DNA from: Blasia pusilla
Lineage: Eukaryota
Direction of reading: 5' to 3'
Length of the DNA stretch: 64,000 nt
Assembly: GCA_050084515.1 (NCBI GenBank)
Contig: CM114271.1
Location: 15,190,001-15,254,000, forward strand
The position numbers were made by a program, and so were the translations under genes. The notes beneath the pieces were generated by a model, which made no database searches, was not told the DNA's origin, and saw nothing but the letters and a program-made list of their open reading frames with translations. Shown piece by piece: positions 7,462 to 60,597 of this stretch. Within the stretch, counting starts at the first letter, position 1; each line of letters starts with the position of its first letter.

Positions 7462-8167
7462 TGTCGTGCGCATACACATCGCTACACAACATACATCGTT
7501 GTCATCGAACACACACACAAACACGCACGATCCCATGCTAACTCATGGTATCCAAACAACAAAACAAGAAGTACCAAAATATCTCCAATAAAATAAGATC
7601 CCATCTCTCTCACTATACCATAGTTCTCACATGTCTCTCTCAATGTCAAACCAAACCCACTCTCCTAATGAGAGGCTTGGGTTACACTCACAAGGCAAGG
7701 GACCATAACTCCGCCACCTCGTGCCAAGAGGTTCAACAAAGAGAGAATGAGCTCTCAAGCTCTTTCTCCTTGAAGTATACCCCTCCCCTCCCCCAAGCTC
7801 TCTCAATGGCAACCTATGCTCCCAAGTCACCTCCTTGGCTCTTGACATGATACAAGAGGTCAAGGGTCACTTAACAAAAATAGAAAGTTGACCATATACT
7901 CAGAATGGTACTTGCCTAAAATAGTAAGTTTCTCGATATGGCTCCAAATGAGCCGAAATGAAGGGGAAACATGCTCTCTCAGATTTATCGGGGCCTCAGC
8001 AGGTCATCCCTTGACCTCCTCAGCCTATATCCGTGACAATTGTTGTGCATATACTCATCGCTACACAACATACATGGTTGTCACTAAATATGCACACAAA
8101 CACGCACTATCTCATGCTAACTCATGGCATCCAAACAACAAGACAAGAAGTACCAAAATATCTCCAA
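7462..8167 (-). repeat. 3' terminal repeat block of copy 1: B2 7462-7588, A2 7589-8038, B1 8041-8167; PPT-like tract 8168-8178
   Basis: tgtcgtgcgcatacacatcgctacacaac... recurs at 8041; junction gtgaca-at-tgttgt; minus-strand aggggggcaa precedes B1. Confidence 0.85.
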
Positions 8168-11100
8168 TTGCCCCCCTAGCTGGTGTTTAGGTCCCTCTAA
8201 TTCCAGATAGACATATATCCCTACCTACCATGACATATATCTCTTGGAGGGTAAGAGCAAGAAGGACGGGTGCTCATTTGGCCCCATCGTTAGTCGCCTT
8301 CTTGTCATCCATATCACAGACACATGTCAGAATATAGAACTACCTACGCTATGTACATCTGGGACACACCCATCGTTCCTGAGGAACCCTAGTGCGAGGT
8401 GGCATCAAACATGTTATATGTCATCCTCTCGAACATCCATCACAGACTAGCATAGTGGTTGCACCACGGGTGGAACCACACAACATTCACCGCAAGTCGG
8501 CAGGAACTACTGCTAAGATCGGATCAAGTATAGCGTCAATATTTGGAATATGACATAGCGCACAATTACGCACATGGTCCTTCCAAACTATACCATCGCG
8601 TTCCTCCAATAAGAGAACATCGGATGGCAAAACCTCAAGCACTCTTAAGGTAATGTGCCCTGCAGTCACATTCAAGGTCGTGGATGCCGTCCGCTGCAAG
8701 TAGACATAGCCTCCCTGATGAAACCTCCCGATAGTAGGTCGATAATCACCTTCCCAAAGAGTCGCATATCTCAATGTACCCCGATGTTGCGCAATCACCA
8801 AGTTCTCAAATGCCATGGGCATCACTCTCCGAAACAACTCATCCCTCTACTGAATCTGTATCCCATCGCCAACCATGGAAATTGGAGGTCCCAATCTCCA
8901 AGGTGACCTCTCTGCAAGCCATACTTGCGTAGTCTCTAACCCGTCACACTCTTGTGCAAACGTCTCGCTCCACGTGGTCTGCATATGCTCAGTGGCTAAG
9001 CGTCGAAGCTCCACAGTCGAGCCCCAAAGTGGCACCTCTCTTCCACGGATTGATGCGGCTACCATGACACTCCTCTCCATAGAAATTTCACGAATGGGAG
9101 TATCCTCTGCATTGACATGTTTCTCAATCAAATCACTAGGCCAAGTGATGGCACTCCTTTATGCTACTAAGGTTGGCATCTCTCCTGGCCGTCGTTCGAT
9201 CATTGCACCTGTGAATTGAACGGGTAATGAGCTAAGGCGCCCATTACCTAACTCCCATCCTGGTTTGTAGGACGCTGACTCCTCCTAGTAATCCAGGGAA
9301 AACCCCATCGGATATAACACTGCTCCACCAACCAAGACGTCGTAGGACTCTATATCAGTCACTATCGCCTTGGCTCGCACCACAGACTCATTTGTAGGAT
9401 GTCCCGGGCGAATCCTCACCACGACCTCTTATCGGGTGATATACTATGTGGTACTTGCTCTACCCAAGGAAGTCTCTATCTGGAATGGACAACGCTCCAT
9501 GTTGGCTCTCGTTAAGCCTAATCCTCTTAATGACGTTTTTCCCAACATTAGGGGTTGCACTCCTGAATCTAACAAGAAGCGTTGCGGACTAAAAGCTCTA
9601 CCTCCTGGACTCACCAATAGGAAGACCTCTCCCCGGTTATCCAGCAACACAACACCAAGAGAAGCCATGGCATGCTCTATCGTGGGTCTAGCCAGCATCT
9701 CCGCCATCCTAGCAACTGCAGCCTGCCATGAATCCGACGTGGACGGCCCAAGCATCCGCTCCAAGGGCAAGTCCATCACCTCTGAATGTGATCCAATAAC
9801 TCCAACTCCACGCTCATATAGCATAGCGGCCATCCAAAATACCTCGACGGGTGTACCTCCCAACGTCATAACATCGAAAGCAGTAAACACCAGAGCACGG
9901 TACACCATTGTGGCCGCCCCCAACATCGTACTCGACACATGCTCCTCTTGAGCATCAACAATAGGAGTCATCACACTCGCTTCTTCCATCGCCCTCCGTG
10001 CATGTACACCAATCTCATTACCAACTCTCCGGGAACTTTGATCATGACCAATCGATGGGGTACTCATCGTCTCAGACAACATGAAAGACTAAGGAAGCCT
10101 GGTTTGTTTCCTGGATTCCCCTCGTTGTGGATCCAACTCTGCTCCAAGCGTCACAACTGCAACGGCCTCCATCTGGGCAACCTCGCACATCCAACTAGGA
10201 TCCTCCATATCTATAGTTGCTCCATATGAAGTCGATGCCATGGATTCGACATCGGGTAACCTCAATGCCATAGCGGCAATTTTCTCTTGTAGTTGTTGTA
10301 TCTGAGCAGCCATCCCAGCCTCACACCTGGCATCTCCCTCGATATGTGTAGGTGATGGGACTCTACCTCCTCCACGGGCAGCTCCACCACCCTGTCGGGC
10401 AACTCCAGCTCCTCGTCCCCCAATGTGACCACCTGGTGCACGATCTGTAGGCCCATCCGGACCGGCTACTTGCTCTGATGCCCTCTCTGGCCCTCGGTCA
10501 GGACCTAACTCAAGGTGTAAACTGAAACACCTGGCGCGTGTGTGACCATACCTCTGAAAATAGTCACAATGATAACCTCCTGGTGCAGCACCATCTCCTC
10601 CTCCATGTTGAGGCACACGTCCATGATCCTGATGATGGGCTCCACCACATGACCAACAAATAATCATAGGCGGTTTCTGTTGAGTTGCATATGAAGGCGC
10701 AGGTCTCTGTGGCATGGCCTCTCAATATCCTCCCTCAACTCATGGTGCCACAATCGACCTATCTCGGAGTCAACGTTGTTGCATTGGTGGTGCAGACAAT
10801 CCTGACTGCTCTCCCCCAAAACCTATGGTGGCTACGCTCTCCTCCGCCATGTTGCGCTCAATGTTCTTGGCTGTCCTAAAAAAATCTCTCAATGTAGGGG
10901 AGGTATTCATAAGAAGCACCCCCTCCCGTACCCGTGTCCGTAGGGTCCGGTCCAACATCGCATACCATGACTGGATAGCCTGAGCTTCTGTCACCCCTTG
11001 AGTGACGTTGATCACCCGGCGCAAGCGAGTGTAAATCTCATGCAAACTGTCACCCGAGCACCTTTGGAAGTTGTGGATGCTTCGCAACTTCTCCGTCTAT

Positions 11101-11206: not shown

Positions 11207-13950
11207 TGTCACATCTTTAAGGATAGATCGATGAGATGTAGTATAGCGCCTTCGTGAGTAGTGTAGGACATGCTCATTAGGTGGAGGATGACTTGTTGAG
11301 GCCTCGAGAAACTTGAGAGAGCAGGTTTCCCCTTCGTTTCAGCTCATTTGGAGCCATATTGAGGAACTTACTATTTTAGGTAAGTACTATTTTGAGTATA
11401 TGATCAATTTTCTATTTTTGATAAGTGGCCTTTGACCTCCTACATCAGGTCAAGAGCCAAGGAGGTGACTTGGGAGGATAGGTTACCATGGAGAGAGCTT
11501 GGGAGAGGGAAGGGATATACCTCAAAGAGAGAGAGCTTGAGAGCTCATTCTCTCTTTGTTGAACCTCTTGGCATGAGGCGGCGGAGTTATGGTCCCTTGC
11601 CTTGTGAGTGTAAGCCAAGCCTCTCATTAGGAGAGTGGGTTTGGTTTGACATGAGAGAGAGTGCACACCTTTGAGAGCTATGGTGTAAGATGGTGTAGAA
11701 AGAGATTGGATCTTACTTTACAAAGAAAGAATGAGAAACTAAGATAGCTTCATGGGAGAGCTCGCTTGTCACTCGCTCTTTTTGCAAGTTGGGGACCATG
11801 TTCCCCGTTCAACGGCTCATGGGAGTGCTCACTGGAGCAAGGGATGCTTTGATTGTTCTTTGCATTTGCCGATTTTTTGTGTGGAAGAGTGGCGCGTGGA
11901 AGCTCAACCCAATTTCTGAAAGGGATTGATTATGGGGGCGGGTTGCCCCATGCCGGTGTTCTTGGGAGCACCACGTAGCTTTCTGATTTTTATTTTTACA
12001 GGTTTTACATTTTTGTTGGGAGAAATCAGCGCAGAAGCGCAGCCAAATTTTGTGTAGGAGAAAGAGACATTGGGCTTTACAATAGTCCCAGTCAATTTTT
12101 ATTGGAATGTCCAATTCCATCTATTTTTTAATGTTGTTGTAGATCGTGAAGCTATGCACGTTGTGCAATAAACGGTGCATAATTTGGAGTTGCGAGTAAA
12201 AATTTATGGTCAATCTTTCAAAACTGCCATTGCTAGGCAATTTGTAGGGTTAAATTATTCAAACCCTAAACCAACCGCCACGCCGCCGCCGGCCGTCGTC
12301 GTCATAGTCACCATCACTAGTCAACAGTCAACCATTACCGTCAATGGTCTATCATCACCATCAACGGTGAATCGTCATCGCAAATGGTCCACCCTCCACT
12401 GGCCACCATCGGCCGTTGCCATTGCCCAGCGTTGCTCAGAGCCGCATTTGGCCATTGTCCACCCTTTGGTTGCCATTGCCGCCATTACAAAATGGAGGGT
12501 CTTCCACGACCACTGTTGATTCTCTGACTTGCGCCGCCACCACGTGCTTTAGTTTATCCGCCACCGTCATTGCAGTTTCGTCATCAACCAATGATGGTAG
12601 ATGACCTCCGGTTATGGTGTTTGAGTTTTGATTTCATGCTGCTATGTTGTGATTGGTAGCCTCTCAACGACAATCGAGTACTGTGTCGTGCCACACGTAG
12701 CCGCAACACGCCGTGCCGCTCGTGGCCGCACCGCACCGTCTCGATTGCGGAGCCGCACCATCATTGTGGAGCAAAGGTGGGTTTATTGTTGATTGAGGAG
12801 GGTATACCGCCGAGTGCCGCATCCCACCATCGAGGGCCGTGCCATTGTAGCCGTTTTGTACCGCCTGCAATGCCTGCAACGCCACACCGTTCTGTTGGAA
12901 CCGCAGTGTCCATCGAGGAGTCTTGATCAACGTCAGTATGGGAGGAGTATGACTTGCTGATTGGAGGAGTTGTCTCCATGACCGAGTTGGGGTCAAGATT
13001 TGCAATTGCTGAGGAGAAACATCGACATGTGTTCAGGTTACCCATTCTAGTCCTTTACCCTACACGCGTGAGGGATTATGGGATTTGGGTAGTTTATTTG
13101 GGGATATTGGGTTGTGTGGATGCTGAGAGCATCATTTATGTATGTGATTTAGGGGACATAGACATGTGTGGGATGTCCGGAGTTGAGGGTAAGTTATCAA
13201 TGAGATGATAGTCTGGTCGATTTGCCGTACCACGCCGCTTGTTGCCGCCTGTTACACGTCTCGGGGAGGGAGAGTGTAGATCGATTGCCGCATGTTTGGG
13301 ATGAGTGATTGAGGGATTACTTGCAAGGTTGAGAGCGATCGTGTGAGAGGGGCACCAGGGCCATCGCGGCGTCCTTTCAGGATTTTGAGAGACGAGGTAG
13401 TGGACCTGAGAGTAGCTTTGGAGGGTTTACCGGGAGAGATGCGAGGTTTCGAGGGTCTCCACATGAGAGACCACCTCAATCTCCTTCTGTGTTGTCTTCA
13501 GACGAGGGAGAGCATGTAGAGGAGTGTGTTAGTGATCCACCGTACACATTGAGTGGTCCTACTAGTTGGGCGTACGAGATGGACGACCGGGGTAGAGGAC
13601 CGCGTAGGTTTTCAGGTGCTATAGGCATCATAGAGCTACACAACTTCATTGCGGAGTTTAGGAGTTGGTGTGACTCAAAGGGGGCTAGGAACTCTAGAGA
13701 GTTCAACCCATTTACAGCATGGAATGGTATGTTCCAGCATTTAGAGGGGGCACCCATAGACGATTACTATGAGTTCTCCCACAGATATGCCCAGGAGATT
13801 GAGGCATGGCGACTCTACTATGACCCACACTATGTGTCATGGACGCAGCCGTTCCCAGATAAGGAGGAGGAGTCAGGAGAGGCTACTTCCTCTTCCATTA
13901 GTGATGTTTTAGGAGGGGTCACTTGCACGGGAGCAGTTGCATCGTCAAGC
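11207..13950 (+). mobile_element. 5' portion of the same gypsy family in opposite orientation: repeat A (11207-11720), long leader, gag N-terminus
   Basis: 11207-11720 is the reverse complement of A2 and begins TGTCAC. ORF 13489 ends KEEESGEATSSSISDVLGGV, matching the gag at 55213 (KEEELGEVTSSATNDILGGV). Confidence 0.85.
13489..13950 (+). pseudogene. gag: Retrotransposon gag N-terminal region (truncated)
   Basis: RFSGAIGIIELHNFIAEFRSWC... and homology to the start of the 55213 copy, which continues into the knuckle-bearing gag. Confidence 0.7.
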
Positions 13951-25062: not shown

Positions 25063-25478
25063 TGTAGAAAACCGCTAAAGAAGCATAATTGGTGGGAAAC
25101 TGCTCTCACACTCACACACCACCATGAAGAACAAAATTTTACAATGAGAGAAATGAGTGGAGGCTGGTCCCCTTCTCAATGAAATAGGGTATGTACAAGC
25201 AACCCTAATCCTAATCTTAACCATAGTCTCGAGTTAGACTAGCTATGATTAACTAACCATAGTTAAGATAATCGCGCTTAAGTGACTAACCAAGATTAAA
25301 CTTCCCTACTTCATGTGAGTACCAAATATAGCAGTTCAAGTGTCTGATGAGCTTGACTATAACTCAGTCTTCAATACTCCCCCTCAAGCTCATATCGATA
25401 TCTCTAACGCCTAAATAATTTCTTAACATCTCAAACTTATCTCTAGAAAATGCCTTTGTTAAGATATCAACAATTACT
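25063..25478 (-). mobile_element. Ty1/copia 3' remnant: RNase H C-terminus, PPT and 311-bp LTR (25063-25373)
   Basis: VDILTKAFSRDKFEMLRNYLG...LRGS; GAGGGGGAGTAT followed by TGAAG...CTACA. Confidence 0.75.
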
Positions 25479-25479
25479 C

Positions 25480-28400
25480 GTAAAATAATGGGGCCTGCCG
25501 TCACATCCAACGTTGTTGGTGCATTCTGCTACAAATAGACATAGTCCCCCACATGGAACCTACGAATCGATGGTCAATAACCTCCACCCTAAATGGTTGC
25601 ATACCGCAATGTATCCCTGTGTTGAGCAATGGCAAGATTCTCAAAGGCTGTTGGCATAACTCTCCGAGGGAGCTCTCCCCGTTGAGAACACACTCTCATC
25701 TACATCTCTGGGTCATCAAGGTTCACCACCTCACTAGACTCTTGACGAATTGATGTTGGCAAGTCTGGATCTCGGCCGTATAACAAAAAAAGATGAGAAG
25801 GAAGCCAAGGATGCTTGGCGACTGAACCTATACCCCATGGCTAACCATGGCAACTGAATATCCTAGTCTCCAAGATGCCCCTTTTGTAGGTTATACTTGC
25901 GCAATGCCCTCTTCACCGTCTGAACCACACGCTCAGCCAAACCATCCGCCTCTGGATGATCTCGAGACGTGGTCCGATGATCAATCTACGTCTTGTCACG
26001 CAAGACCTGAAACTCTATACCCTTGTCGGTCAGCACCTTAGTTGGTGCACCAAAATGACTAAGCACTCTATCAAGAGACACATACGCCGTTCCCTCACTT
26101 GCCTTGTCAGGTAATGCCACCAACTCAATCCACTTGGAAAGTGCTCCACCATCACCAACACATATCGATGATGTCGTACAGTCAACGGTAACGGTCCCGC
26201 AAAGTCCACACTCCAACGGTAACCCAACCCCATAATAGGCAAGGGGAGTAACTATGGTGTAGGGGCATTGAATGATTCCCTCACCTGGTCACAAACCATA
26301 CAATGTGACACCAACTGTTGCACGTGAGTATGCATGATACGCCACCAATATTGGCCAAGGAGTAAGCTATACGTACGCTTTACCCCAAAATTTCCCAACT
26401 CCTCATGGGCATGTTGCACGATGCGCTCTCTCTGAGCCAAATGTGGCACCACTCGTACTCTACAATCCTCTCACACACAAAGAATATGTGTTCCCTCCAA
26501 TCAATACCTCCTAGCACGTTGAAGAACACGGTCTCGCTCCTTAGCACTCACTATGCCTAGCACCCTACTGGTCCGTAAGAACTCCAACACCAACGCATCA
26601 TCATGAATATCACGCTGATCGGTACCACCATCTCCAACCTTAGGATCTGAAGGTTGGCCATCTACCCTGTGACTAGAGTAAGGTGTCATGTGGTCCTCCA
26701 TACTAGAGTCCATCCCTAACCAACATAAAAAGGCAGATGCATGCCAACCTGGCACCATCTCCTCATCAACCTCGCCATGCCATCTAGCCCCAATTGCATC
26801 CTCTTGGCTTGTACATGGGTTCCTACTCAACCCATCAGCATCAAGGTTGGCAACTCCAGATCTATGTACCATCTGTAAGTCATACTCCTGTAAGATAAGA
26901 GCCCACCGTGCAAGCTTCCCTGTAAGCTTGTCAGACTCCATCAACCACTTGAGCGGCTGGTGATCAGTAACAAGGGTAAACTGTGTGCCAAACAAGTAAC
27001 ACCTAAAGTGTGCCACAGCCCACACTACTGCCAAGCACTCTCCCTCATATGAACTATAGCGCGAATCCGCTGCATTATTTGAACGACTTGCATAGGCCAC
27101 CACAAAATCCATGTGCTCATCATCATGTTGTGTCAACACCGCTCCAAGTCCCAACATACTCCAATAAGTGTGCAACTCAAATAGGCGCCCTCTGATAGGT
27201 CTCCTCAAGATAAGCGCGGCCATCAACTAGGCCTTGAGCTCCATAAAAGCTCTCACGTTATCATCTCCCCAGTGCCACTCCTAATCTAATTTCAGCAATT
27301 GGTTCAAAGGCTTTGCCATAACACTAAATCCCTTCACATACCTCCGATAGTAGTTCGCCAATCCCATTAATGCCTGAACTCTACTCATATCTACCGGATG
27401 AGGAATAAGTGCAATAGCCTCCACCTTTGCGTGCTGAACTCCCAAACCACCTGGATAGATCAGATGACCCAAGTACTCAACATCCTCATGGAAGAACTTA
27501 CACTTTTTTGGATGCAAACGTAGACCATGAGCTTTCAACTGCTCAAACACAATCTGCAAATGTATCTGATGGTCCTCCACCGTGTTACTCAACACCAAGA
27601 TATCATCAATGTAACACCAAACAAAATCCAACCCTGCTAGGATCCTTTCCATCACTCTCTGAAACTCGGAAGGTGCATTCTTCAACCCAAAGGGTAAGAA
27701 TTTCCACTGGTACAAACAATCCTTGCCATGAAAGTTGACACCCCAAAGTCTTGTCTTGGCCTTGTCACTCTCTCGAATCGGTAATTGATGGTATCCTGCC
27801 CGAAGATCCAAAGTACTAAAAATCTTTGCCTATCCCACCACATCAAAGATCTCCTTAGGTGTAGGCATGGCATACCTATCGGCCTTGGTTTGCCGATTGA
27901 TAAGACGATAATCTCCACACATCCGCCTATCCATGTAGTTGCCATGCACATCCTTTTTCGCAGGGATGACCGTGGCTGATGCATACTCTCCATGCAAAAA
28001 CTCCACTAATCTAGCCTTCAAAAGGTCCAAGGTCCTACTCTGAATCAGGTCCCTCTCCATATCACTATATCGGTAGGGACGACGGAAGATTGGCGTATCA
28101 TTAGCCAAATCAATCCGTATACCGGGTCCAACCAAAGCACCCAACTCCTTCATGCTAAAGGCAAAACAACTCCTATAAGCACGTAGGGAAGCGTGTCAGC
28201 GCCGTTTCTCACTCACCCCGTAAGCTTGGGCCCAAGTAATGGCTCCCAAGTCTCCTCCACTGGCACACTAGAGGGAGAGGACGATGCCATTGGCTGCTAT
28301 GCAATCCCCTCACAAGATTGTACACCCTTAGCTACACCATCATCTGAGCTCTACTCACTACCAAGGCTAACTCCCAACTCAACATGCTCAACTCAAAGAA

Positions 28401-36047: not shown

Positions 36048-37624
36048 ATAACTAGCCGGTGGCTGTGCTATGCACAAATGAAAGGCATCCAAACTCCAAA
36101 TGGTAGGACGTGTTTCAAAATTGATAGGGAGAAAACGACCCAAAAAGGCTATTGGCCCAAAAAGACTTTGGCATCAGGAAGCAGGAAGCGTGGCACCCCT
36201 ATAAGGGCACTCTCCAATAGTAATATAGATTTAGTAAAAAATTAAATTTCTCCACGACTAAAATTGCTATGATGGGGATTTTTTATAATGAAATATATGG
36301 ACAATCATGTTCAATCCTCCCACCCCAAAAAATCAAATAATTTGAAAAGTTTAGAAAAAATTTTACACATTTTCTCAAAATATTCCAAGCGAAGGTTTAT
36401 ATTGGAGTCTCTTTTAAGATTAATTGATATCAATGTCATTCTCCTCAAGAGGGGGACACAGGAAAATTCAATGAAAAATTGAGAAATTTTACTTATATGA
36501 TTACTTCCACCTTATCACATTAATTTTTTTAATATTCTTTAAAATTTAAAAATAGAATAATAATGAATACAGGGATAACTAGCCGGTGGCTGTGCTATGC
36601 ACAAATGAAAGGCATCCAAACTCCAAATGGTAGGACGTGTTTCAAAATTGATAGGGAGAAAACGACCAAAAGGCTATTGGCCCAAAAAGACTTTGGCATC
36701 GAAGCGAGAAGCGTGGCACCCCTATAAGGGCACTCTCCAATAGTAATATAGATTTAGTAAAAAATTAAATTTCTCCACGACTAAAATTGCTATGATGGGG
36801 ATTTTTTATAATGAAATATATGGACAATCATGTTCAATCCTCCCACCCCAAAAAATCAAATAATTTGAAAAGTTTAGAAAAAATTTTACACATTTTCTCA
36901 AAATATTCCAAGCGAAGGTTTATATTGGAGTCTCTTTTAAGATTAATTGATATCAATGTCATTCTCCTCAAGAGGGGGACACAGGAAAATTCAATGAAAA
37001 ATTGAGAAATTTTACTTATATGATTACTTCCACCTTATCACATTAATTTTTTTAATATTCTTTAAAATTTAAAAATAGAATAATAATGAATACAGGGATA
37101 ACTAGCCGGTGGCTGTGCTATGCACAAATGAAAGGCATCCAAACTCCAAATGGTAGGACGTGTTTCAAAATTGATAGGGAGAAAACGACCCAAAAAGGCT
37201 ATTGGCCCAAAAAGACTTTGGCATCAGGAAGCAGAAGCGTGGCACCCTATAAGGGCACTCTCAATAGTAATATAGATTTAGTAAAAAATTAAATTTCTCC
37301 ACGACTAAAATTGCTATGATGGGGATTTTTTATAATGAAATATATGGACAATCATGTTCAATCCTCCCACCCCAAAAAATCAAATAATTTGAAAAGTTTA
37401 GAAAAAATTTTACACATTTTCTCAAAATATTCCAAGCGAAGGTTTATATTGGAGTCTCTTTTAAGATTAATTGATATCAATGTCATTCTCCTCAAGAGGG
37501 GGACACAGGAAAATTCAATGAAAAATTGAGAAATTTTACTTATATGATTACTTCCACCTTATCACATTAATTTTTTTAATATTCTTTAAAATTTAAAAAT
37601 AGAATAATAATGAATACAGGGATA
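36048..37624. repeat. Three near-identical tandem copies of a ~525-bp unit
   Basis: Units start at ~36048, 36575 and 37098 and differ mainly by 1-nt indels; the same 64-aa ORF recurs in each. Confidence 0.97.
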
Positions 37625-37853: not shown

Positions 37854-38606
37854 TGTCGTGCCCATACACATCGCTACACAACATACATCGCTGTCATCGA
37901 ACACACACACATACGATCCCATGCTAACTCATGGCATCCATAAACAAGGGCGAGAAGTATCAAAATATCTCCAATAAAGTAAGATTCAATCTCTCTCTAC
38001 ACCATCTCACACCATAGCTCTCAAAGGTGTGCACTCTCTCTCATGTCAAACCAAACCCACTCTCCTAATGAGAGGCTTGGGTTACACTCACAACGCAAGG
38101 GACCATAGCTCCGCCGCCTTATGCCAAGAGGTTCAACAAAGAGAGAATGAGCTCTCAAGCTCTCTCTCTTGGAGGTATACCCCCTTCCCTCTCCCAAGCC
38201 CTCTCAACGGTAAACTATGCTCGCAGGTAATCTCCTTGGCTCTTGACGTGTTGTAGCGGGTCAAGGGTCACTTCCCAAAGTGGAAAGTCAACTATCCCAA
38301 ATATGGAAACTTACTCGAAATAGTAAGTTTTTCTATATGGCTCCAAATGAGCCGAAACGAAGGGGAAACTTGCTCTCTCAGGTTTTCCGGGGCCTAAACA
38401 GGTCATCCTCGACCTCCTGGGCCTGTCCTCCACTACTCGTGCAGACGATCCGCTAGATCCCACTGATCTATCCTAACAATCGTGACAACTGTCGTGCGCA
38501 TACATATCGCTACACAACATACATCGCTGTCATCGAACACACACACGATCCCATGCTAACTCATGGCATCCATACACAGAGGCGAGAATTACCAAAATAT
38601 CTCCAA
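37854..38606 (-). repeat. 3' terminal repeat block: B2 37854-37974, A2 37975-38487, B1 38490-38606; PPT-like tract 38607-38617
   Basis: Same B-A-B layout as 7462-8167; junction cgtgaca-ac-tgtcgtg. Confidence 0.88.
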
Positions 38607-38799
38607 TCGCCCCCCTAGCTGCTGGTTATGTTCCTCTAACTCTAGATAGCTATCTATCCCTACCTACCACGACATACATCTTTAGGACGCTAAGAGCAGA
38701 AAAGCCGGGTGCTCATGTGGCCCCATCGTTAGTCGCCTTCATGTCATCCATGTCACAGAAAAATTCAGAATCGAAAACCTACCTAGTATCTCCTTTATG

Positions 38800-38935
38800 T
38801 ACATTTGGGACACATCCATCATCCCCAAGGAACCCTAGTGAGAGGTGGCGTCAGACATGCCATATGCCAAGCTCTCGAACATCCATCACAGACTAGCATC
38901 GTGGCCGCATCACGAGCAGAACCACACAACATATA
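38800..38935 (-). pseudogene. PHD finger at the integrase C-terminus
   Basis: (Y)MLCGSARDAATMLVCDGCSRAWHMACLTPPLTRVPWG*WMCPKC; C4HC3 pattern with the first Cys replaced by Tyr. Confidence 0.9.
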
Positions 38936-40100
38936 ACGCAAGCTTGCAAGACCTACTCCTAAGCTCGGATCTACTGTACCATCAATGTTAGGAAGGTGAC
39001 ATGGCGCACAATTACGCACATGGTCCTTCCATACCATACCATCGCGTCCCTCGAGCAAGAGAACACTGGATGGCAAAACGTCATGCACTCTCAGGATAGT
39101 GCACCCTGCAGTCACATCCAACGTCGTCGGTGCCGTCTGCTGCAAGTAGACATAATCTCCCTTATGAAACCTCCGGATAGTTGGTTGATAACCACCACCC
39201 TGAATAGTTGCAAACCTCAACATATCCCTATGCTGCGCAATCACAAAGTTCTTGAACGCCATGGGCATCACTCTCCGAAATAACTGTGCCCTCTGAGAAC
39301 ATGCTTGCATCCATACATCTAGGTCATCAAGGTCCAGCACCTCACCAACATCTCGACGAATGGCCGCAGGTAAATCTGGCTCTTGACCATAAAGTAGCAA
39401 GTACGGTGAAAAAGATGCTAAGGATGCCTGTCTGCTGAATCTGTGTCCCATCGCCAACCAGGGAAACTGGAGGTCCCAATCTCCTAGGTGACCTCTCTAC
39501 AAGCCATACTTGCGTAAAACCCTCTTCACCGTCTGCACAACTCTCTCCGCTAATCCATCCGCCTCGGGATGATCTTGCGAAGTCGTGCGGTGGTCGATCA
39601 GCGCCTGATCACACAAGGCCTGGAACTTACCACGAAAATTGGTAATGTGGTCTGTCAACACCTCAGCCGGTGCGCCATAATGACTCAACACTCTGTCAAG
39701 GAAGGCATAAGCTACTCCCTCACTCGCTTTGTCAGGCAATGCAACCAACTCGATCCACTTCGAGAAGTGCTCGACCATCACCAACACATAACGACTGTGA
39801 CGCTCCGTCAAAGGCAAAGGTCCTGCAAAATCCAAAATCCATATATACCCTAAGCCCATGATCAGTAATGGATGCAATTGTGGAGTCGGAGCATTGAACG
39901 ATGCTCAAACCCGATCACACACCACGAACCTGGCAATAAAGTGCTGAGCGTCAGTCTACATGCCTCGCCACCAATACTGGAGCAAGATATACATCCGCTT
40001 CACCCCAAAGTGACCCAACTCCTCGTGGGCATGCTGCACTAGTCGTGCTCTCTACAAAGGATGAGGCACTACGCATACTCTACCATCCTCCCAAACCCTC
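38936..40100 (-). pseudogene. Retroviral-type DDE integrase
   Basis: HEELGH zinc-binding region, LDFAGPLP, VLTD...FRGKF, HPEADGLAERVVQTVKR, SPYLLLYG. Confidence 0.93.
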
Positions 40101-40390
40101 AAAACATGTGTCCCCTCCCAACGGAACCGTCTGGCCCAGTGTAGGATCCGATCCCGCTCTCTAGCACCCACGGTGCTCGCAACGCTGCCAGTACAAAGGT
40201 ACTACAAGACTACTCCATCATCATGAATATCTCGGCTACATATTGTCTCCTCACTGGCCTCGAGATCCAAGGACTCTCCACTAGACCTCGCCATCGAAGT
40301 CTCCACACTGTGGCTCTCCATAGAGCCTAAATAGGCTGACACGTGCCATCCTGGCACTGACTCCTTATCACTCTCTCCATGCCTTCGAGC

Positions 40391-41841
40391 TCAAGTCGCA
40401 TCTCGCTGACTCGGGCATGGGTTACAACTCAACCCATCTGCATCGTGGTTGAGCATCCCAAGTCTATGTACCATCTGAAAATCATACTCTTGCAACAACA
40501 GAGCCCATCTTGCAAGCTTCCGTGTAAGCTTGTTGGACTTCACCAACCACTTTAGTGGTTGATGATCATTGATGATGGTAAAGGGGCTGCCGAATAAGTA
40601 ACACCTGAAATGCGCGAGAGCCCACACTGCAACCAAGCACTCAACCTCATACGAGATGTACTTTGCCTCTGCAGCGTTGTTCGAGCGGCTAGCATAAGCC
40701 ACCACGAACTCTCTACCCTCATCATCATGTTGGGTGAGTACCGCTCCAAGCCCCAAAACGCAACAATCTGTGTGCAACTGGAAAGGACGCCCCTTGATTG
40801 GTCTCCTCAAGATAGGTGCGGACGTCTCTCTATCCTTGAGCAACAGAAATGCTCGCTCCTACTCACCCCCTAGTGCCACTCGTGATCCACCTTGGTCAGC
40901 AAGGTTAGTGGCAATTGAACTAAATCCCTTGACGTACCCCCGATAGAAGTTCGCCAATCTCATGAATGCGCGAACACGGCTCACATGTGTAGGACGTGGA
41001 ATGCGTGAGACAGCCTCTACCTTCGTCTGCTGAATACCAAGGACCCCTAGGTATATTGTATGACCCAAGTACTCAATCTGGTCGTACAAGAACTTGCACT
41101 TGCCTGGATGTAGCTTCAGCCCATATAATTGCAATCGTCGAAACACCTCCTCGAGATGTCACTCATGCTCCTCATCTGTGACGCTAAAGACTACGATGTC
41201 ATAAATATAACACCTAGACCGGCCAAGATCCTATCCATGACCCTCTGAAACTCAGCCGGGGTGTTCTTTAACCCAAATGGTAAGAACCGCCACAGGTACA
41301 AACAATCCTTCTCATGAGGATCGATGCCCCAAAATTGTGTCTTCTGCCTATCCTCCAATCAGATAGGCAGCTGATGGTATCCGGCTCGCAAATCCAATGA
41401 ACACAAGACGTTTGGATGACCAATCACATCCAAGATCTCCTGAGGGGTGGGCATGGCATACTTATTGGACTTTGTCTGCCAATTGATAGGTCGGTAATCC
41501 CCACACATCCGCCAATCCGTCCAGTTGCCATGCACATCCTTCTTGGAAGACATGACAGTGGCAGAAGCATACTCCCCATGCAACATCTCCACTAGTCCTG
41601 CTCCGACCAAGTCCTGGCTCCTACTCTGAATTAGAGCCCTCTCCATATCATTGTACCTGTAGGGTCGTCGGAAGATCGACGTATCATTCGACAACTCAAT
41701 GCGAATCCCCGGTCCCTTTTGCATACCAAAATCCTCCATGCTAAATGCAAAGCAGCTCCTATAACTCCTGAGGAATTGATGTATCCGGCGCCGCTCTCCT
41801 CTTGTCAACTTAGGACCCATATTTGGCTCCCAAGTCTCCAT
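40391..41841 (-). pseudogene. Reverse transcriptase and RNase H
   Basis: WRMCGDYR, LDLRAGYHQ, PFGLKN, degenerate YIYD, KCKF...EYLGH, LHTD, AYASRSNN, DHQPL, HDADGLS. Confidence 0.93.
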
Positions 41842-42169
41842 CGTGATTACGGTAGGACTCTCCGGTGCGGGTATCAGTGGTTGCTATGGTTCAACCCCGT
41901 CTCGAACAACAACACTCAACCGCTCTCTTGCAACCAACTGCAAACTCTGATCTCCTCCACGTGCAGTGCCCAGAACCACACTCGATGCTGTGGCTATCAT
42001 CTCTTGGCGTACCTGCAAAACATCCCAAGAAGTCCAAGGGTGTCTCTCCCAATCTCCCCTGGTGTGTAGATCTCCTCGGGTCTCGCCCCCAGCCATTGCC
42101 TCCACCGTCTCGGTAGGCATAGGGCTCACCAACGCGATGGTTGTGATCTGTCACAATCTCATACAGCGT

Positions 42170-43140
42170 TGCTCAGCCACTCCCAAGCTAAGGATCCATG
42201 TCAAGCAGTTCAGGTCCATCGCCTGACCCAAGACATGGCATCGTGATGCCTCTAACACTGACGATACTGCTGTCACTCATGTGGGAAATCCCATCGCTCG
42301 CTCGCTCTCTCTTGTCGGCGTTGGGCTCCACCAACCGCTGAACCTGGTCATCCAAACCAAGCCAGGACCGGCCTCCTTGTATGCATAGGAAGCGGAAAAA
42401 CTCACAAACGTGGGCAAGGCAGCCCGCGGCCTGCCTACCCTGTTGACCATAGTCAACGGTGGTCAATCATCGTGCCTCACTGCTTGTGATCGACGATGTG
42501 GATCCATAATGGAATCAACTAACAAATGGGAGGGGCGCTCCACTCTCGCATACGCCCTCCGTAACACCGCTTGGGGCACCAAGTTGGTCCATCATAGACG
42601 CGGGCGATGGGCTCTAGAACCTACACTCGCCGCATCCAAGAACACTGCTGGGCCAATCTAGGCACGCACTTGATGAGCACTTGTGACCACCCGTTACCTG
42701 GAGTCTCCTAAGATCGGCACATTCTCCAGAATGTAGGCTGGAGAACGAGACTGGTGCTCATGAAATTGCCGTAAGACCCTCAACATCTCCCAAAAAAACC
42801 TAGACCGAGTGTCAGCCAACCCACAGCCTCGTCCAACACTTGATTGGCCCTGACATGGCCAACCGGAAATGACCAAATCAATGGTCCCTACTTGCTCTAA
42901 GTCCTGCGCCCCCAACAACAAAATATCCCTCAGTAGGGAACTCTGGTGTCCCTATACCGCGGACGCAGAAAATAAGTCGGGAAATCGTAAGCGTAACTGC
43001 GCTACATGTCCTAGTGAGACGCGCCTCACAACATCATCACTCTCCACATACAGGTACTGCTGCACTCGCACTCCTGCATGCAAAACAATAGCTAACCCGG
43101 TGCTAATCCCTCCAAAGAGATCTAACACTCGAATATCCTC
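42170..43140 (-). pseudogene. DNMT3-like DNA (cytosine-5) methyltransferase domain within the polyprotein
   Basis: Motif I VLDLFGGISTG; II YVE; IV DLVISGWPCQ; VI ILENV; VIII LDAASVGSRAHRPRL*WTNL; IX RERA.MGFP; X VLGQAMDLNCLTWIL; all in canonical order. Confidence 0.92.
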
Positions 43141-43181
43141 CTCCGGGATATACCACACAATGGGTGTGGTATCCAAGGGTG

Positions 43182-44231
43182 TCATGTAGCACTCCTTGCT
43201 ACCTCGGGTTCCTCAGACCTGTCACCCTCCGATGCAAACGCGTCGCTCCACGCGGTCTTCACATGCTGATCTGCCAATCGTCGAAGCTCCTCAGTCGAGC
43301 CCCACAATGGCACCTCTCCTCCACGGAATGATGCGGCTACCATAACACTCCTCTTCATAGAAATTTCAGGTATGGGAGTATCCTCTGCATGGACATGTCC
43401 CTCAATCAAATCACTAGGCCAAGTGATGGCAATGCTAAATGCTGCTAAGGTCGCCATCTCTCTTGGCCGTCGCTTGATCACTGCACCTGTGAATCGAACG
43501 GGTAATGAGTTAAGGCGCCCATCACCTGACTGCCATTCTGGTTTGTAGGACACTGACTCCTCCCAATAATCCAGGGAAAATCCCATCGGGTATAATACTG
43601 CTCCACCAACCAAGACGTCGTAAGACTCTGCATCAGTCACTATCGCCTTGGCTCGCACCACGGACTCATCTGTAGGATGTCTCGAGCGAATCCTCACCAC
43701 GACCTCTTGTCGGGTGATATACTGTGTGGTACTCGCTCCACCCAAGGATGTATGTATCCGGAATGGACAACGATCCACATTAGCTCTCGTCAAGCCCAAT
43801 CCTCTGAATGAAATTTTCTCCAACATCAGGGGTTGCGCTCCTGAATCCAACAAGACACGATGCGGACTAAAAGCTCTACCTCCGGGACTCACAAATTGGA
43901 AGATCTCTCCTCGGTTATCCAACAACACAACACCAAGAGAAGCCATGGCACGCTCTATCGTGGGTCTAGCGGGCAACTCCGCCATCCTAGGAGCCGCAAC
44001 CTGCCATGAATCTGACGTGGATGGCCCGAGCATCCACTCCAAGGGCAGGTCCATCACCTCCTTTGCCATCACCTCTGAACGTGATGTAAGAACTCCAACT
44101 CCGCGCTCACATAGTGAAGGGGCGAGCCGAAAAGCCTCGGCGGGCGTACCCTCCCACGTCATAACATCGAAAGCAGAAAATAAAGGAGTGCGATACACAA
44201 CGGTGGGCACCCCCAACAACGTGTTCAACAC
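43182..44231 (-). CDS. Retrotransposon aspartic protease region plus linker (349-aa open stretch of a decayed polyprotein)
   Basis: VLLDSGAQPLML catalytic motif and YDVLVG second motif. Confidence 0.85.
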   Translation of the reverse strand: MLNTLLGVPTVVYRTPLFSAFDVMTWEGTPAEAFRLAPSLCERGVGVLTSRSEVMAKEVMDLPLEWMLGPSTSDSWQVAAPRMAELPARPTIERAMASLGVVLLDNRGEIFQFVSPGGRAFSPHRVLLDSGAQPLMLEKISFRGLGLTRANVDRCPFRIHTSLGGASTTQYITRQEVVVRIRSRHPTDESVVRAKAIVTDAESYDVLVGGAVLYPMGFSLDYWEESVSYKPEWQSGDGRLNSLPVRFTGAVIKRRPREMATLAAFSIAITWPSDLIEGHVHAEDTPIPEISMKRSVMVAASFRGGEVPLWGSTEELRRLADQHVKTAWSDAFASEGDRSEEPEVARSAT

Positions 44232-44239
44232 ATGCCCCT

Positions 44240-44825
44240 CCTAAGCATCAACAATAAGAGTCATCGCACTCGCTTCTCCCATCGCCCTCCGTGCCTGCAC
44301 ACCAACAGCATCACCAACTCTCAAGGAACTTTGATGAGGACCCATCGATTGGGTCCTCATCGCTTCAGACAACGTGAAAGACTGAGGAAGCCTAGTATGT
44401 TTTCTGGCTTCCCCTCGCTGTGGATCCAACTTTGCGGCTACTCCACGCGTCACAACTACGGTGGCCTCCATCTAGGCAACCCCGCACATCCAACCAGGAT
44501 CCTCCATATCTTTGGCTGCTCCATATGATGTCGATGCCACAACGGAAATTTGCTCATGTAGATACTGTAACTGAGCAGCCATCCTAGCCTCACGTCCGAC
44601 GTCTCCCTCGGCGCGTCTAGGTGGTGGTACTCTACCTCCTCCACGGGCAGCTCCACCACCCTGTCCGGGCAACTCCAACTTCTCGTCCCCCAACGGGACC
44701 ACATGATGCATGATCCCTAGGCCCACCCGGACCGGCTACTCGCTTTGGTGCCCTCTCTAGCCCTCGGTCCGGATGTAACTCAAGATGTTAACTAAAACAC
44801 CTCGCGCGTGTATGACCATACCTCC
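44240..44825 (-). pseudogene. gag: gag C-terminal remnant
   Basis: YGHTRARCFS knuckle end and G/R-rich tract, colinear with 10089-10560. Confidence 0.8.
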
Positions 44826-45177
44826 CACCGATCCCACCGATCTATCCTAATAGTCGTGACAATGGTGTTGGAGATGGAGCAACAACACGCTCAAGTAGAA
44901 GCCACACAGTTGGTGTTGGAGGTGAAATTTTGGAAACAAGTGGAGGAGCTTGCTAAGTTGTGACGCACCTTTGGAGTTGATAATGATCATCTACCTTCAA
45001 TATTATGTAGAGGAACAATGGTTCACCAATATGTATGTTTGCTATCACTTAGGAGAGGTTGTGCGTCATTTTGTGATGTCTACATAGAAAGAAGGAGATT
45101 TTTTTTAGGATTCAATTAATACCTAGAAGGAGTTGAGGTTAATGATTAGGGCCAAACTTGTGCCTAATAAGTAGGAA

Positions 45178-46580
45178 ATATGCATTGGGAAAAATCATCT
45201 TTCTTAAATTAGAATCAATGAATCTTGTAGATGCTTCAAGAAGTTAGTTTTGTTTGTAATTATTTTGTATACATTAGCTTGGGTCTAGTTGTAATGTTGG
45301 GAATGCATGCATAGTTAATTTTTTTGGTCTGCTTTTTAAAAAAAAACCATATATTTCTATCATGATTCTGACCCCAACCATGTTGAGTTTTGAAGCATTT
45401 CATCCTCAATTAAAATTTTCCATGTTTTATTTTAAATAAAATGAATTCCCTTGTGAGAAACCATCTTTCACTATTATAGCCATGTAAGGATGCATGTATA
45501 ATGCACTAGCATCTCATTGATAATTTGATACATGGTGAATTTTTTAATTTGATCTTTCTCCAAATTAAAAAAACTTTGCATTTAAAAAAAAGAAATCAAT
45601 GAGGATTATATCTAAAAGTTATTCAAACTTTAGAAAAGACAAGAGGCATCTTATCATTTTATTATGAATTTCATTTTTTGATAATAGTATTTATGCCTTA
45701 ATTAAGTAATATTTCTTCTTTCAATTTAATTTGCGCATGAACATGTACATTTAATATAATGACTCATGTTATTCCTTTCCATAAGAGGTACTGTGACAAC
45801 TCATATTTCCTCCTTGAAAAAATACTCTTTTTTCTTAGAAGAGACTTTCCTCATATACTGATCCCCGTTCCTCAAATTTATAATTTAAAATTACTTCCAT
45901 TTTCTCATGCCCTTTTGTTGGATCTCTTTGAATTTCTTTGAAAAAGAGGAGTAATTTGTTTTTACGTATGAAATGCAGGTGTACGTGGAGATTGTGTTTA
46001 TTACATTCAATCTTGTAAAAATCAACTACAAGCATAAAGGAGTTAATAGATGTGCATGTAAAAGTTATTTCCTTGCTTTTTACGTAGCTACTCATGATTT
46101 TGTTATCTATTTAGAAAGATAATGTCAATCATGGATTGTCTTAAAAATGAATAAGGTTTCCTCCCTTAATTTTATATACACATGTTTATGCATGTTCAAG
46201 CTGAGTCTCTATTAGTTTTGTGGAAATTTCTTATCAGATCCCTTCGGCAATTTTTGTTGTTGTTGAAAAATGGTTTGGTATTAAAATGAGTCAACGTTGT
46301 TTCCTTTCTTGATAATTTTCTATGAAAATTACCATCTAACCAATCCAAATCTCATTTATTATTACCTACTTCAATTGTAGGAGATTACATAGGGTAAGAA
46401 TTAATGTATACTTCAATGATTCATGCATGTCGACTCAATTCTTCAAGATGATTCAAGACGAGCAAGAATCTTGCATGCTCAATGATTCCTCATGGTTTGG
46501 ATTATGGCGTAAGGGGTCATGTAGAGTAACTTTAGCTCCAAACATCCCTTTCGGGATTACTAATGTTTTCGATCATGCCC
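45178..46580 (-). repeat. AT-rich dispersed repeat, copy 2 (inverted copy of 16770-18255)
   Basis: Reverse-complement colinearity with copy 1. Confidence 0.88.
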
Positions 46581-55051: not shown

Positions 55052-55223
55052 TTAACTTTAATTTTTAGTTGATAAGAATTATCTTCTCATAAGTTTTTTC
55101 TAATGTCATCTTGTTCACCCCAAAGTAAAGAGGAGGATTAACTTTAATTTTTAGTTGATAAGAATTATCTTCTCATAAGCTTTTTCTAATGTCATCTTGT
55201 TCACCCCAAAGTAAAGAGGAGGA
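55052..55223. repeat. 86-bp tandem duplication spanning the truncation junction of the downstream retroelement
   Basis: ttaactttaattttta...aaagaggagga x2. Confidence 0.9.
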
Positions 55224-58200
55224 GCTAGGGGAGGTTACTTCTTCAGCTACTAATGATATTCTAGGAGGGGTGAGTCGGACTTGGGCAGATCGATGCATCG
55301 TCTTAGGTTCAACCATGTGGTTGAGTTCTTTGCAGAGTTGCAAAGGAACTACCAGGGGGTTCGGACTGAGAAGTTGCAGAGCATCCATGTCTTCCATAGC
55401 CGCACATGTAAGAGTTTGCGTGAGGCATTCATTCGCTTGCGTTGATTGATTAGCATCACTCAAGGTGTGATAGAGGCCCACGCTATCCAAGCATGGTACG
55501 CGATGTTGGAACGAGACATGCGGAAACGGGCGAGGGATGCGACACTTCTTATACGCACCTTACCTACGTTGAGAGATGTTTTTGAGATGGCGGAGTGTAT
55601 TGAGGGAAAAATGCTTGAGGAGAGTCATAAGTCACGCGCGAGAGCAGTCACGATTTTCCTGTACCACCATTGCAACAACGTGGATTTCGGAAGAGGACTG
55701 TGGTACCACGAGGTCAGAGAGAATACTAGGAGTCAGTGCCATAGAGACCAACGCCATAATATGGGGCCGGGAGGAATTTTTTGTTGGGCATGTGGTGAAG
55801 CCCATCACCAACGGGATTGCATTAGTCACAATAGTGGATGCGTACCTCAGCTTGGAGGAGGAGATGGGTTCGTACCAGGATTTTACCACTTTGATCATTG
55901 TCAACGGTTATGGTCATACATGCGCCATGTGTTTTAGCCTTTAACCTGAATTATGCCCGGACCGAAGGCCACAGAGGGCATCAAAGCGAGTTGTCGGTCT
56001 GGGTCGGCCTAGAGGCCATACGCTAGGTGGTCCCGTTGGGATACGAGGAGTTGGATTTGGCGGAAGGGGTGATGTATATGCTCGTGGAGGAGGTAGAGGT
56101 CCACCACCTAGACATGTCGAGAGAGACAAAGGGCGTGAGGCTAGGATGACTGCTCAGATAGAGCAAGTCCAACAACACATTTCCTCTATGGCATTGAGGT
56201 TATCCGATGCCGGATTAGTGGGATTGACGTTGTATGGAGCAGATTGAGGCAGTCGTTGTTGTTACACATGGAGCAGCTGCAAACTTGGATATGCAGAGGG
56301 GAGGCCAAGAAACACACCACACTTCCTCAGCCTTTCATGTTGTCTGCAGCAATGAGGACTCCATCGATGGATCTTCATCAAACTTCTCGGGGAGTTAATG
56401 TTATTGGTGTGCACGCACGGAGGACGATGGGAGAAGCTGGTGCAATGACTCATATTGCGGATGCTTCGGTGGAGTTTGTGTCGGGTACGTTGTTGGGGAT
56501 GGCCATTGTGATGTACCGCGCCCCATGGTGTTTTGCTTTCGATTGTTACAATGTTAGGAAGTAAGCCCGTTGAGGTTTTTTGGCTGGCCGCTACGCCATG
56601 TGAGCGTGGAGTTGGTGTTCCAACATCAAGGTCAGAGATGATTGCAAAGGAGGTGGTGGACTTGCCCTTGGAGACTATGCTTGGCCCGACCATATTGGAT
56701 TCATGGCAGGTTGCGACTGTTAGGATGGCGGAGATGCCTGCTAGACCCGGGATAGAGCGTGCCATGGTTTCTCCTAGTGTTGTGTTGCTAGATAATTGGG
56801 AAGAGGTCTTCCATTTGGTGAGTCTAGAAGGTAGAGTGTTTTTTCCGCAACATGTCTTATTGGATTCAAGAGCGCAACCCCTGATGTTGGGGAAGGCGAC
56901 ATTTAGAGGATTAGGCCTAACTAGGGCACATATGGAGTGTTGCCCATTGAGGATACAATCATCCTTGGGTGGAACAAGTACGACGTAGTTTATCACCCGA
57001 TATGAGGTTGTGGTGAGGAGTTGCCTTGGACATCCATCAAATGAGTTCATAGTGCGAGCCAAGGCGATAGTGACCGATGTCGAGTCATATGATGTATTGG
57101 TTGGAGGAGCAATACTATACCTGATGGGGTTTTCTTGGATAAGTGAGAGGAGTCAACATCCTACAGACTAGGATGGCGGTCAAGCGATGGGCGAATGAAT
57201 TCATTATATGTTCAATTCACAAGTGGAGTAATCGAGTGACCACCACGAGAGATGGTGACATGAGCAGCATTCAGCATCTCCATCACTTGGCCTAGTGATT
57301 TGATTGAGGGGCATGTCCATGCAAGGGACACACCCACGCTTGACACTTCTACAGAGAGGAGTGTTATGGTAGCCACATTATTCTGTGGAGGGGAGGTGCC
57401 GTTGTGGGGCTTGAGTGAGGAGCTTCGACGCTTGGCCGATGAGCACGTGCAGACGGATTGGAGCAAGAAGTTTGCACTAAAGCATGACGGGTTAGAGGAA
57501 CCCGAGGTAGCTAGGAGTGCTACTTTGACACCCTTGGACAACACATCCATTGTATGGCGGATCTTTGAGGAGGGTATTCAGCTATTGGATCTCTTTGGAG
57601 GGATCAACATAGGATTGGCTACTGTTTTGTAGGCAGGAGTACATGTGCAACAATATCTATTTGTGGAGCTCGATGAGGTTGCGTTTAGGGTTTAGGGTTT
57701 CACTTTGACATGTGGCGTAGTTACGCCTTCGTTTTCTCGAATTGGTGTATGCCTCCGTTGTACATGTGTACCAGAGTTCCCTACCGAGGGATATTTCGTT
57801 GATGGGGATGTGGGACTTAGAGTGGATGAGGACCATTGATTTGGTCATTGTTGGTTGGCCATGTTAGGGCCAGTCGAGTGCTGGATGAGGTAAAGGGCTA
57901 CCTGACACTTGATCTAGGTTGTTTTGGGATATGATCAGGATCTTGCGACATTTGCAAGAGCATCAGTCCCGTTCTCCAACTTTCATCTTGGAGAATGTAC
58001 CAATTTTGGGTGACTTGAGGGCACGGATGGTGACAAGTGCACATCAGATGCGTGCTTAAATTAGTCCAGCAATGTTTTTGGAGGCGGCGAGTGTAGGTTC
58101 ACGAGCACATCTCCCGCGTCTATGGCAGACCAACTTGATGCCACACGAGGTGTTACGAAGGGCGTATATGAGAGTGGAGCACCCCTCCCATTTGTTGATG

Positions 58201-59997: not shown

Positions 59998-60597
59998 GAC
60001 ACGTGTATGAGCATGACACGCCGCTAGAGCCCATTAGCATGCACATGCTACAAAGCTAAGGAGACCAGTTGCCTACAATAAAGAATCACTATAGCTAATA
60101 ATCTCAGGAACTAAGGACGATCCATTTCTTGACTGTAGATGATGAGTAAGGAACGAGTCAAACCTCCCCCATAGCCTCATATATCTCTATGATAAGGGAA
60201 ACTAATCCATGTCCATCATGAAATCTACTTTATAGATGGGTTTTCTTGATAGCCTCCACCACTCCTTGAAACATTCTCCCTTTAACCACCACCGGGCTCC
60301 CACGCAAGAAAGTCAAATGTCGATTGTTGGTTTGGGGTTTTTACCATGTTTTCACATATGAGTACACATCATGTTTTCCCACGGCTTTTGAGCCTATCCG
60401 GAATGTTATGAGCCTCTCAAACAGAACTTTCAATGGCAGCACTGTTTTCAAATATCCTGTCATCCAGCTTGGGAACTCGGCAAGAATTTTCTCAGCAACG
60501 GAGGGAATTCTGAATCCCATACGTCTTTCGAATAGCTAGTTATTCCACCGCGTTGGAGCTTAGCCAGAATATTCTAATCTGGGGAGAGAATTTCGAA

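Follow-up and report, generated by a model that had tools for sequence, protein, structure and literature searches.

A stretch of 64,000 nucleotides (nt) from the liverwort Blasia pusilla (contig CM114271.1, positions 15,190,001 to 15,254,000; hereafter the window) contains copies of a retrotransposon family that combines a DDE integrase with split terminal repeats. At the 3′ end a polypurine tract (PPT) is followed by a repeat B, a two-nucleotide spacer (NN), a repeat A and a second B, and at the 5′ end A stands alone, followed directly by a primer-binding site (PBS), after which comes the leader. How might an integrase of the retroviral type give rise to such an insert? The probable answer, drawn from comparison of many copies, is that the two ends of the complementary DNA (cDNA) are joined to each other and that the integrase then opens the joined molecule at an attachment (att) site lying inside the long terminal repeat (LTR).

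The window copies are degenerate, with frames broken by stops, and their features are collected in Table 1. A preliminary description had reported the order A...PPT-B-NN-A-B in two copies, and this order is indeed present at 37854-38617 and 7462-8177, both on the minus strand, with B1 and B2 being 91% alike in the former. It had also taken 11207-11720 as a 5′ end consisting of A only and running into the leader. The lack of B is confirmed, here and throughout the family, but this A1 lies on the plus strand, opposite to both 3′ ends, within an inverted piece (11207-13949) that overlaps the copy at 7462-11206 by about 35 nt. The rearrangement spans window positions 8939-13949, where the 5′ 2.7 kb (A1, leader and the start of the open reading frame) is inverted with respect to the copy's remaining part, with about 35 nt duplicated; one breakpoint falls exactly at the att end TGTCAC, and autointegration or a nested insertion is possibly the cause. 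From the 5′ A of the copy at 37854-44861, 33 nt survive, again with no B before them, and CAT is found at both flanks of the copy.

Table 1. Features of the element family in the window (window coordinates; U3 and U5, unique 3′ and 5′ regions; R, terminal repeat of the RNA; ORF, open reading frame; RT, reverse transcriptase).
Feature	Position	Strand	Remarks
Second 3′ end (PPT-B1-AT-A2-B2); the copy has an internal deletion	7462..8177	-	A2 shorter; spacer AT
A1 (5′ end, no B)	11207..11720	+	Inverted relative to copy 7462-11206
Self-primer motif	11544..11558	+	Predicted RNA 5′ end; a TATA-like motif (11516-11519) lies about 28 nt upstream
PBS	11721..11735	+	Directly after A1; complementary to 11544-11558 at 14/15
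Leader and start of first ORF	11736..13949	+	
B2, 122 bp	37854..37975	-	Right end of element; ends CACGACA
A2, 513 bp	37975..38487	-	TGTCACG to CTTACTTTA; read as remaining U3 plus R-U5 of the 3′ LTR
Self-primer motif copy inside A2	38137..38151	-	Identified by sequence
Internal att junction CACGACA-GT-TGTCACG	38481..38496	-	2-nt spacer at 38488-38489; same core in distant relatives
B1, 118 bp	38490..38607	-	Start of U3 directly after PPT; ends CACGACA
PPT AGGGGGGCG	38608..38616	-	Putative plus-strand primer; remnants found at A2/B2 joints
End of pol with PHD finger	38819..39496	-	PF00628, E=2e-7
DDE integrase and zinc-binding domain	39335..40108	-	PF00665, 7e-11; PF17921, 5e-10; broken by stops; D-D(34)-E in intact relatives
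RT and RNase H	40391..41847	-	Degenerate
Pol-encoded C5 cytosine methyltransferase domain, upstream of RT	42355..43104	-	PF00145, 1.6e-9; 58% to P0001; stop-broken
Probable aspartic protease region	43470..44225	-	LLDSGA motif by eye; no Pfam match
33-nt remnant of 5′ A (TGTCACG...) of the 37854 copy	44829..44861	-	No B upstream

The copy survey covered the B. pusilla assembly (390 Mb in 26 contigs), in which exact junction patterns were counted genome-wide with reversed patterns as controls. The A|B junction has 863 matches and the A-PBS junction 1587 (no control matches for either), and the B-NN-A pattern has 2369 (four in the control), a count in which sister families are probably included. 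There are 40 full-length matches to 37854-38617, and all 30 fetched as 3′-end loci follow the order B-NN-A-B, one of them with a cut B2. The 5′ ends were sought without bias by using the leader sequence alone as query, which gave 30 loci (one is the window copy and one is shared with the other set of 5′ ends), and B lies between A and the leader at none of them; a rearranged copy, L065, has a partial B and spacer upstream of its 5′ A, the sole such case among the 30. When 51 5′ ends were traced downstream, 19 led to B-A-B, seven to B only and four to a cut B-A, with no 3′ end within the fetched range for the other 21; together with 20 copies traced upstream, this gave 31 paired B-A-B elements. 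A target-site duplication (TSD) of 4 bp is exact in 17/31 of these and matches at three or more of the four positions in 23/31, the insert termini being TG...CA. In each of the five segments compared, A1 resembles the A2 of its own element more than do A copies of different elements (p≤0.005). The spacer in B-NN-A (n=77) is AC in 27 cases, GC in 19, GT in 11 and AT in 11, a spectrum that would be expected if the GC in GACAGCTGTC decays through cytosine deamination on either strand.

Two complete direct LTRs are not found at the insert termini, where the 5′ end is A only and the 3′ end is B-NN-A-B. Might the LTR nevertheless be a normal A+B unit, the 5′ B having been deleted and B1 being a subterminal duplication homogenised by gene conversion? 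Such a unit alone would start with TG and end with CA, and solo A-B units with TSDs do exist. This reading, which the preliminary description had raised against itself and which would predict an A+B 5′ LTR in most copies, is refuted by the leader-anchored 5′ ends, by the number of exact A-PBS junctions and by the occurrence of the same layout in a distant family (see below); moreover, the PPT adjoins B1 and not A2. Hardly any probability can be given to it. If the LTR is instead B-NN-A, the PPT stands directly before the 3′ LTR and the PBS directly after the 5′ LTR.

The nature of the PBS is indicated by the element itself. A motif situated 177 nt before the end of A is perfectly complementary to the first 15 nt that follow A1. 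With resampled A sequences the longest complement in 20,000 trials was 13 nt, and 14 was reached in none of them, while the match is at least 13/15 in 50 of 56 5′ ends. As the sole tRNA-type check, TGG was looked for in the first 8 nt after A1 and is absent from all 56. The preliminary description had seen no obvious tRNA PBS; a PBS is present, though, and priming looks Tf1-like, with the PBS predicted to pair with the element's RNA at its 5′ end, in keeping with the non-standard priming that had been foreseen. Three RNA-seq runs from the same species give coarse, mostly sense coverage of L192:1-2600, with reads across B1|A2 and a fall in depth near the end of A.

Among the first 100 of the 863 A|B junctions, inspected by eye, 69 read TTTA|TTGG, 23 read TTTA|ATTGG and eight are of other types, and the two main forms are present in both subfamilies. 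At 23 junctions genome-wide there is a fill that begins with PBS bases, and these fills form a graded series; PPT remnants occur at ten junctions, some with filler. Only one junction, C8:27570880, has both, namely 12 PBS bases together with the PPT. Of five filled junctions that were fetched, three are true 3′ ends. The CA-NN-TG sequence between B1 and A2 had been likened to a circle junction, yet it is better regarded as a templated internal att, the cDNA ends meeting at A2|B2 where the remnants of both primers are found; the circular type of intermediate that had been proposed is likely. Two junctions are unusual in other ways: at G000:C3:28026012 PBS bases are followed by their own reverse complement, as in a fold-back, and in L039, which has an exact TSD, 331 nt of leader lie between A2 and B2.

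A comparison of the two B copies of each element, made on 73 of 77 loci after four misparsed loci had been dropped, bears on whether this joint is old or new. Rare transversions common to B1 and B2 of one element number four against 0.6 expected (p=0.002), and all rare variants so shared number five against 1.9 (p=0.04). By a crude typing the B subtype agrees between B1 and B2 in 70/73 loci, the three exceptions resembling point mutations. The distances within B1 (0.070), within B2 (0.067) and between B1 and B2 (0.068) are equal, so that no fixed divergence is evident. An inherited joint would follow from a scheme like that of PAT and TOC1, in which the transcript takes in all of B1-A2-B2 and serves as template for B2, and the layout does equal that of split-direct-repeat elements (PMC7192593), with the RNA-seq showing no poly(A) site. 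However, the occurrence of two main forms in each subfamily would be unexpected for such a joint, as would a graded series of PBS and PPT remnants, and B1 and B2 should have diverged as separate lineages; we consider this explanation very unlikely. The shared rare transversions together with the lack of fixed divergence point to B2 being recopied from B1 and to the joint being made anew. Thus A2|B2, read as the joint of a U5 end with a U3 start, behaves like the junction of a 2-LTR circle that is remade in every cycle.

These observations can be accommodated in a scheme of five steps, of which priming, joining and cutting are all inferred from sequence patterns. Transcription, for which sense RNA is seen, would start within A1 about 177 nt before its end, and the first 12-15 nt of the RNA, whose complementarity to the PBS is observed, would anneal to the PBS that directly follows A1 and, as in Tf1, serve as primer for the minus strand. 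Plus-strand synthesis would be primed at the PPT, and strand transfers would then generate linear DNA of the form B-NN-A-PBS...PPT-B-NN-A; if the minus strand is primed at the end of A and the plus strand at the PPT, established LTR reverse transcription makes the LTR B-NN-A. The predicted ends of this LTR, ATTGG... and ...CTTTA, are not integrase ends, and the TG and CA with which the insert ends are instead found head to head within the LTR, as GACA-NN-TGTC. In the fourth step the U5 end would be joined to the U3 start in each cycle to give A|B, with the scars described above, either through an end-to-end jump of the RT or through host end-joining into a 2-LTR circle. In the fifth the integrase would act on the internal GACA-NN-TGTC of the PBS-side LTR and cleave each strand after its CA, so that 2-nt 5′ overhangs resembling those of processed retroviral ends remain, and insertion with the observed 4-bp TSD would yield A...PPT-B-NN-A-B. 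B2 would accordingly derive from the left cDNA LTR, its first ~120 bp having been moved to the right end by end-joining. Since the U5 end would be joined to the U3 start and the molecule opened at the PBS-side att, scars of both primers are expected at A2|B2. The predicted cDNA ends lack TG and CA, and the junction scars argue against an integrase acting on the ends of linear cDNA. We lean towards the RT jump over host end-joining because it explains why the att would be cut on one side only, as the jump could displace B up to the PBS-side att; earlier loading of the integrase on that site would be another explanation.

A number of results weigh against this scheme. With regard to priming, (i) the minimum-energy fold places the RNA 5′ end in another helix that is better by 1.2 kcal/mol, (ii) the pairing probability of primer and PBS is 0.82 for a 15-nt start but only 0.33 for a 12-nt start, and (iii) no transcription start or poly(A) site is resolved in the three RNA-seq runs on L192:1-2600. 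With regard to joining, two of the five fetched filled junctions are solo A-B units with a TSD, and some fills may be deletions. In a symmetric free 2-LTR circle the att on the PPT side should be cut as well, and the reciprocal product A-B-NN-A-PBS was not found: the first 15 Mb of C1 contain 68 PBS junctions, none of which has an att 300-700 bp upstream, compared with 14/40 A|B junctions that have an att site upstream. Finally, the GT-repeat length class differs between B1 and B2 in 11/32 elements of one subfamily, and the similarity of B copies within an element is weak (p=0.018, 0.047), and in another comparison is not above that between elements. The length-class differences could come from slippage or from a second molecule, and a test of linkage between B length class and A haplotype gave no column with p<0.05 among 66 tests. 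The length-class differences and the weak similarity are what would be anticipated if joining were intermolecular, with the right end of one cDNA joined to the left end of another (or to free plus strong-stop DNA), the PBS-side att of each being cut and B2 deriving from the second molecule. The same joint scars would be predicted, and a co-packaged sister genome could yield both sets of B1/B2 results; the rare transversions that B1 and B2 share within elements, and the near-complete agreement of subtype, nonetheless make this variant unlikely, and joining of the two ends of one cDNA followed by opening at the internal att is the reading we retain.

The same layout is seen in distant relatives, for which 80 metagenome loci were found with the protein P0007 and 45 long loci were compared with themselves, several rows being the same locus in different assemblies. 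Five full-length elements have the A...PPT-B-NN-A-B arrangement with A and B sequences unrelated to those of the Blasia family, a G-run PPT before B and the GACA-NN-TGTC att core, and are flanked by 4-bp TSDs, four exact and one matching at 3/4. Each has a different self-primer about 30 nt after a TATA box, detected automatically in three and visible with mismatches in two, and in the two that were folded the pairing probability is 0.98 and 0.86. Their joints vary as well: B2 starts ~135 nt upstream of the PPT in L260, retains ~29 nt in L223 and has one extra base in L239. A third RT group contributes two loci with PPT-B-NN-TGTCACG.

Some elements end differently. In Blasia, L069/L142, L075/L147, L077/L149 and L036 end in PPT-B without A2-B2, yet have an exact 4-bp TSD; in the metagenome family many loci end in B only, and L211, L215, L246 and L262 likewise combine such PPT-B ends with an exact 4-bp TSD. 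These could be products of 1-LTR-circle integration, of use of the B end on the PPT side or of later recombination between B1 and B2, and in the metagenome contigs they could be due to assembly collapse.

By its proteins and TSD the element is of Ty3/Gypsy type and no member of PAT/Ngaro, while its termini are not those of a canonical LTR element. The domain order is DNMT-RT-RH-DDE integrase-PHD, with the RT-RH-INT order of pol and the Ty3-type RT that define Ty3/Gypsy, and the best PDB match of the intact relative P0007 is Ty3 Gag-Pol. No Pfam match to a tyrosine recombinase was obtained from 52 stop-free frames of at least 70 amino acids of copy L193 or from 20 window ORFs, the copies being degenerate, and the same frames and ORFs gave no match to a chromodomain, a PHD being found instead. 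Integrases usually have 35 residues between the second D and the E; this spacing is 34 in all seven relatives (P0003, P0007, P0009, P0011, P0016, P0025 and P0027), which may be linked to an unusual integrase substrate. The C5 methyltransferase domain (PF00145) is also present in a second host, at L220:8874-9830, extending Gypsy-DNMT elements to a liverwort and to that host. In an RT tree of 85 rows, which has no named lineage references (no named Tf1 or Tcn1 row) and a backbone that is otherwise weak, a 100/97 branch separates the streptophyte sequences that carry a PHD or DNMT from chromodomain-bearing sequences. The nearest named relatives are from Calypogeia and Marchantia, and two Klebsormidium RTs, whose identity as KnitGypsy-Dnmt3 is unverified, fall on the PHD/DNMT side of the split.

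The layout itself is not new, since it has been published once before, with no mechanism in the passages concerned, for KnitGypsy-Dnmt3 of Klebsormidium nitens (De Mendoza et al.; PMC5890265), which the legend to Fig. 4c describes as having Gypsy domains with DIRS-like repeats A-coding-B-A-B. The Blasia family is like it in its Gypsy domains, its DNMT in pol and its repeats, a comparison by description only, as those passages mention no PBS, PPT, TSD or att (PMC5890265), and differs in being a high-copy family of a liverwort. For PAT, Ngaro and TOC1 the order is A1-ORFs-B1-A2-B2 and a circular intermediate has been proposed, according to the account in PMC7192593. The presence of this order on a DDE-integrase element, as first suggested for the window, is borne out: PAT, Ngaro and TOC1 use a tyrosine recombinase, whereas the Blasia family has a DDE integrase, a Ty3-type RT, a PPT, a self-primer PBS, TG...CA termini and a 4-bp TSD. 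Those elements are not known to make an integrase-type TSD, and in this too the Blasia family is unlike them.

A PBS complementary to the element's own RNA 5′ end is described for Tf1/Sushi, Tj1 and plant Tcn1 (PMC4600332, PMC6317226), a property that the Blasia family shares for its predicted start. According to the same accounts both LTRs of these elements are complete and terminal, and Tcn1 belongs to the chromoviruses (PMC4600332, PMC6317226); the Blasia family, in contrast to Tcn1, has a PHD and a DNMT with no chromodomain match, and its RT lies on the opposite side of the 100/97 split from chromodomain-bearing matches. A PHD is also present in Gypsy-7a_cRei of Chlamydomonas, but that element is built with two LTRs.

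The opening of a palindromic junction in joined cDNA recalls the 2-LTR-circle model (Panganiban and Temin 1984), which was overturned, as PMC11054761 relates, when retroviruses were found to integrate linear DNA; foamy-virus integrase is nevertheless reported to be able to cleave LTR-LTR junctions (PMC1180852). The retroviral junction is the end joint itself with a 4-base spacer, whereas the Blasia att would be templated and internal, lying 120-180 bp away from the end joint and having a spacer of 2 bases. Copy-out paste-in elements of the IS30, IS3, IS21 and IS256 families likewise insert from abutted right and left ends by means of a DDE enzyme, as outlined in PMC9333248 and PMC3299598. These are DNA transposons in which the transposase makes the junction, whereas that of the Blasia family is copied from RNA. 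The junction spacer of the IS families is 2-3 bp.

In the literature searched, which leaves out most subscription papers and Repbase, neither this mechanism nor self-priming, scarred junctions or an internal att was found described for such elements. With rather less assurance than we attach to the joining itself, we favour the broader proposal that these elements form a streptophyte-wide LTR retrotransposon lineage whose DDE integrase no longer uses cDNA ends and needs joined ends with a cut at an internal palindromic att, a natural and obligate form of the abandoned 2-LTR-circle model. This would suggest that the split repeats of PAT, Ngaro and TOC1 are permuted LTRs of an ordinary two-LTR cDNA too. 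If true, the proposal would run counter to the rule by which integrases of the retroviral type act on linear cDNA and insert its processed ends, and would offer a possible link in mechanism between LTR retroelements and those with split direct repeats. The end-joints preserved as fossils in this one genome, of which there are hundreds, would record primer removal and joining, and GACA-NN-TGTC provides a defined short substrate for testing internal cleavage. It is plausible that LTR finders demanding TSD-flanked TG...CA LTR pairs (REXdb criteria) would miss the family, because A1 and A2 are not TSD-flanked and A2 has no CA end; with over a thousand 5′ ends in this genome, the transposable element content of bryophytes and algae may be misclassified.

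At L280 (G000:C1:7357600-7360500) there is a 1036-bp tandem repeat whose unit includes the last 80 bp of A plus B, and in the window three tandem copies of ~527 bp each, with 99% identity, adjoin the element's 3′ end at 36048-37624. Elsewhere in the window, sister families with 71-78% identity are represented by diverged pol fragments at 25475-28255 and 55216-59998; the part at 25475-26000 has many ~93% matches across the genome. Two copies of another repeat, unmatched by the family's full-length copies, lie at 16770-18254 and 45179-46580, and a host gene for an AMP-binding enzyme (PF00501) occupies 2202-3548 on the minus strand.
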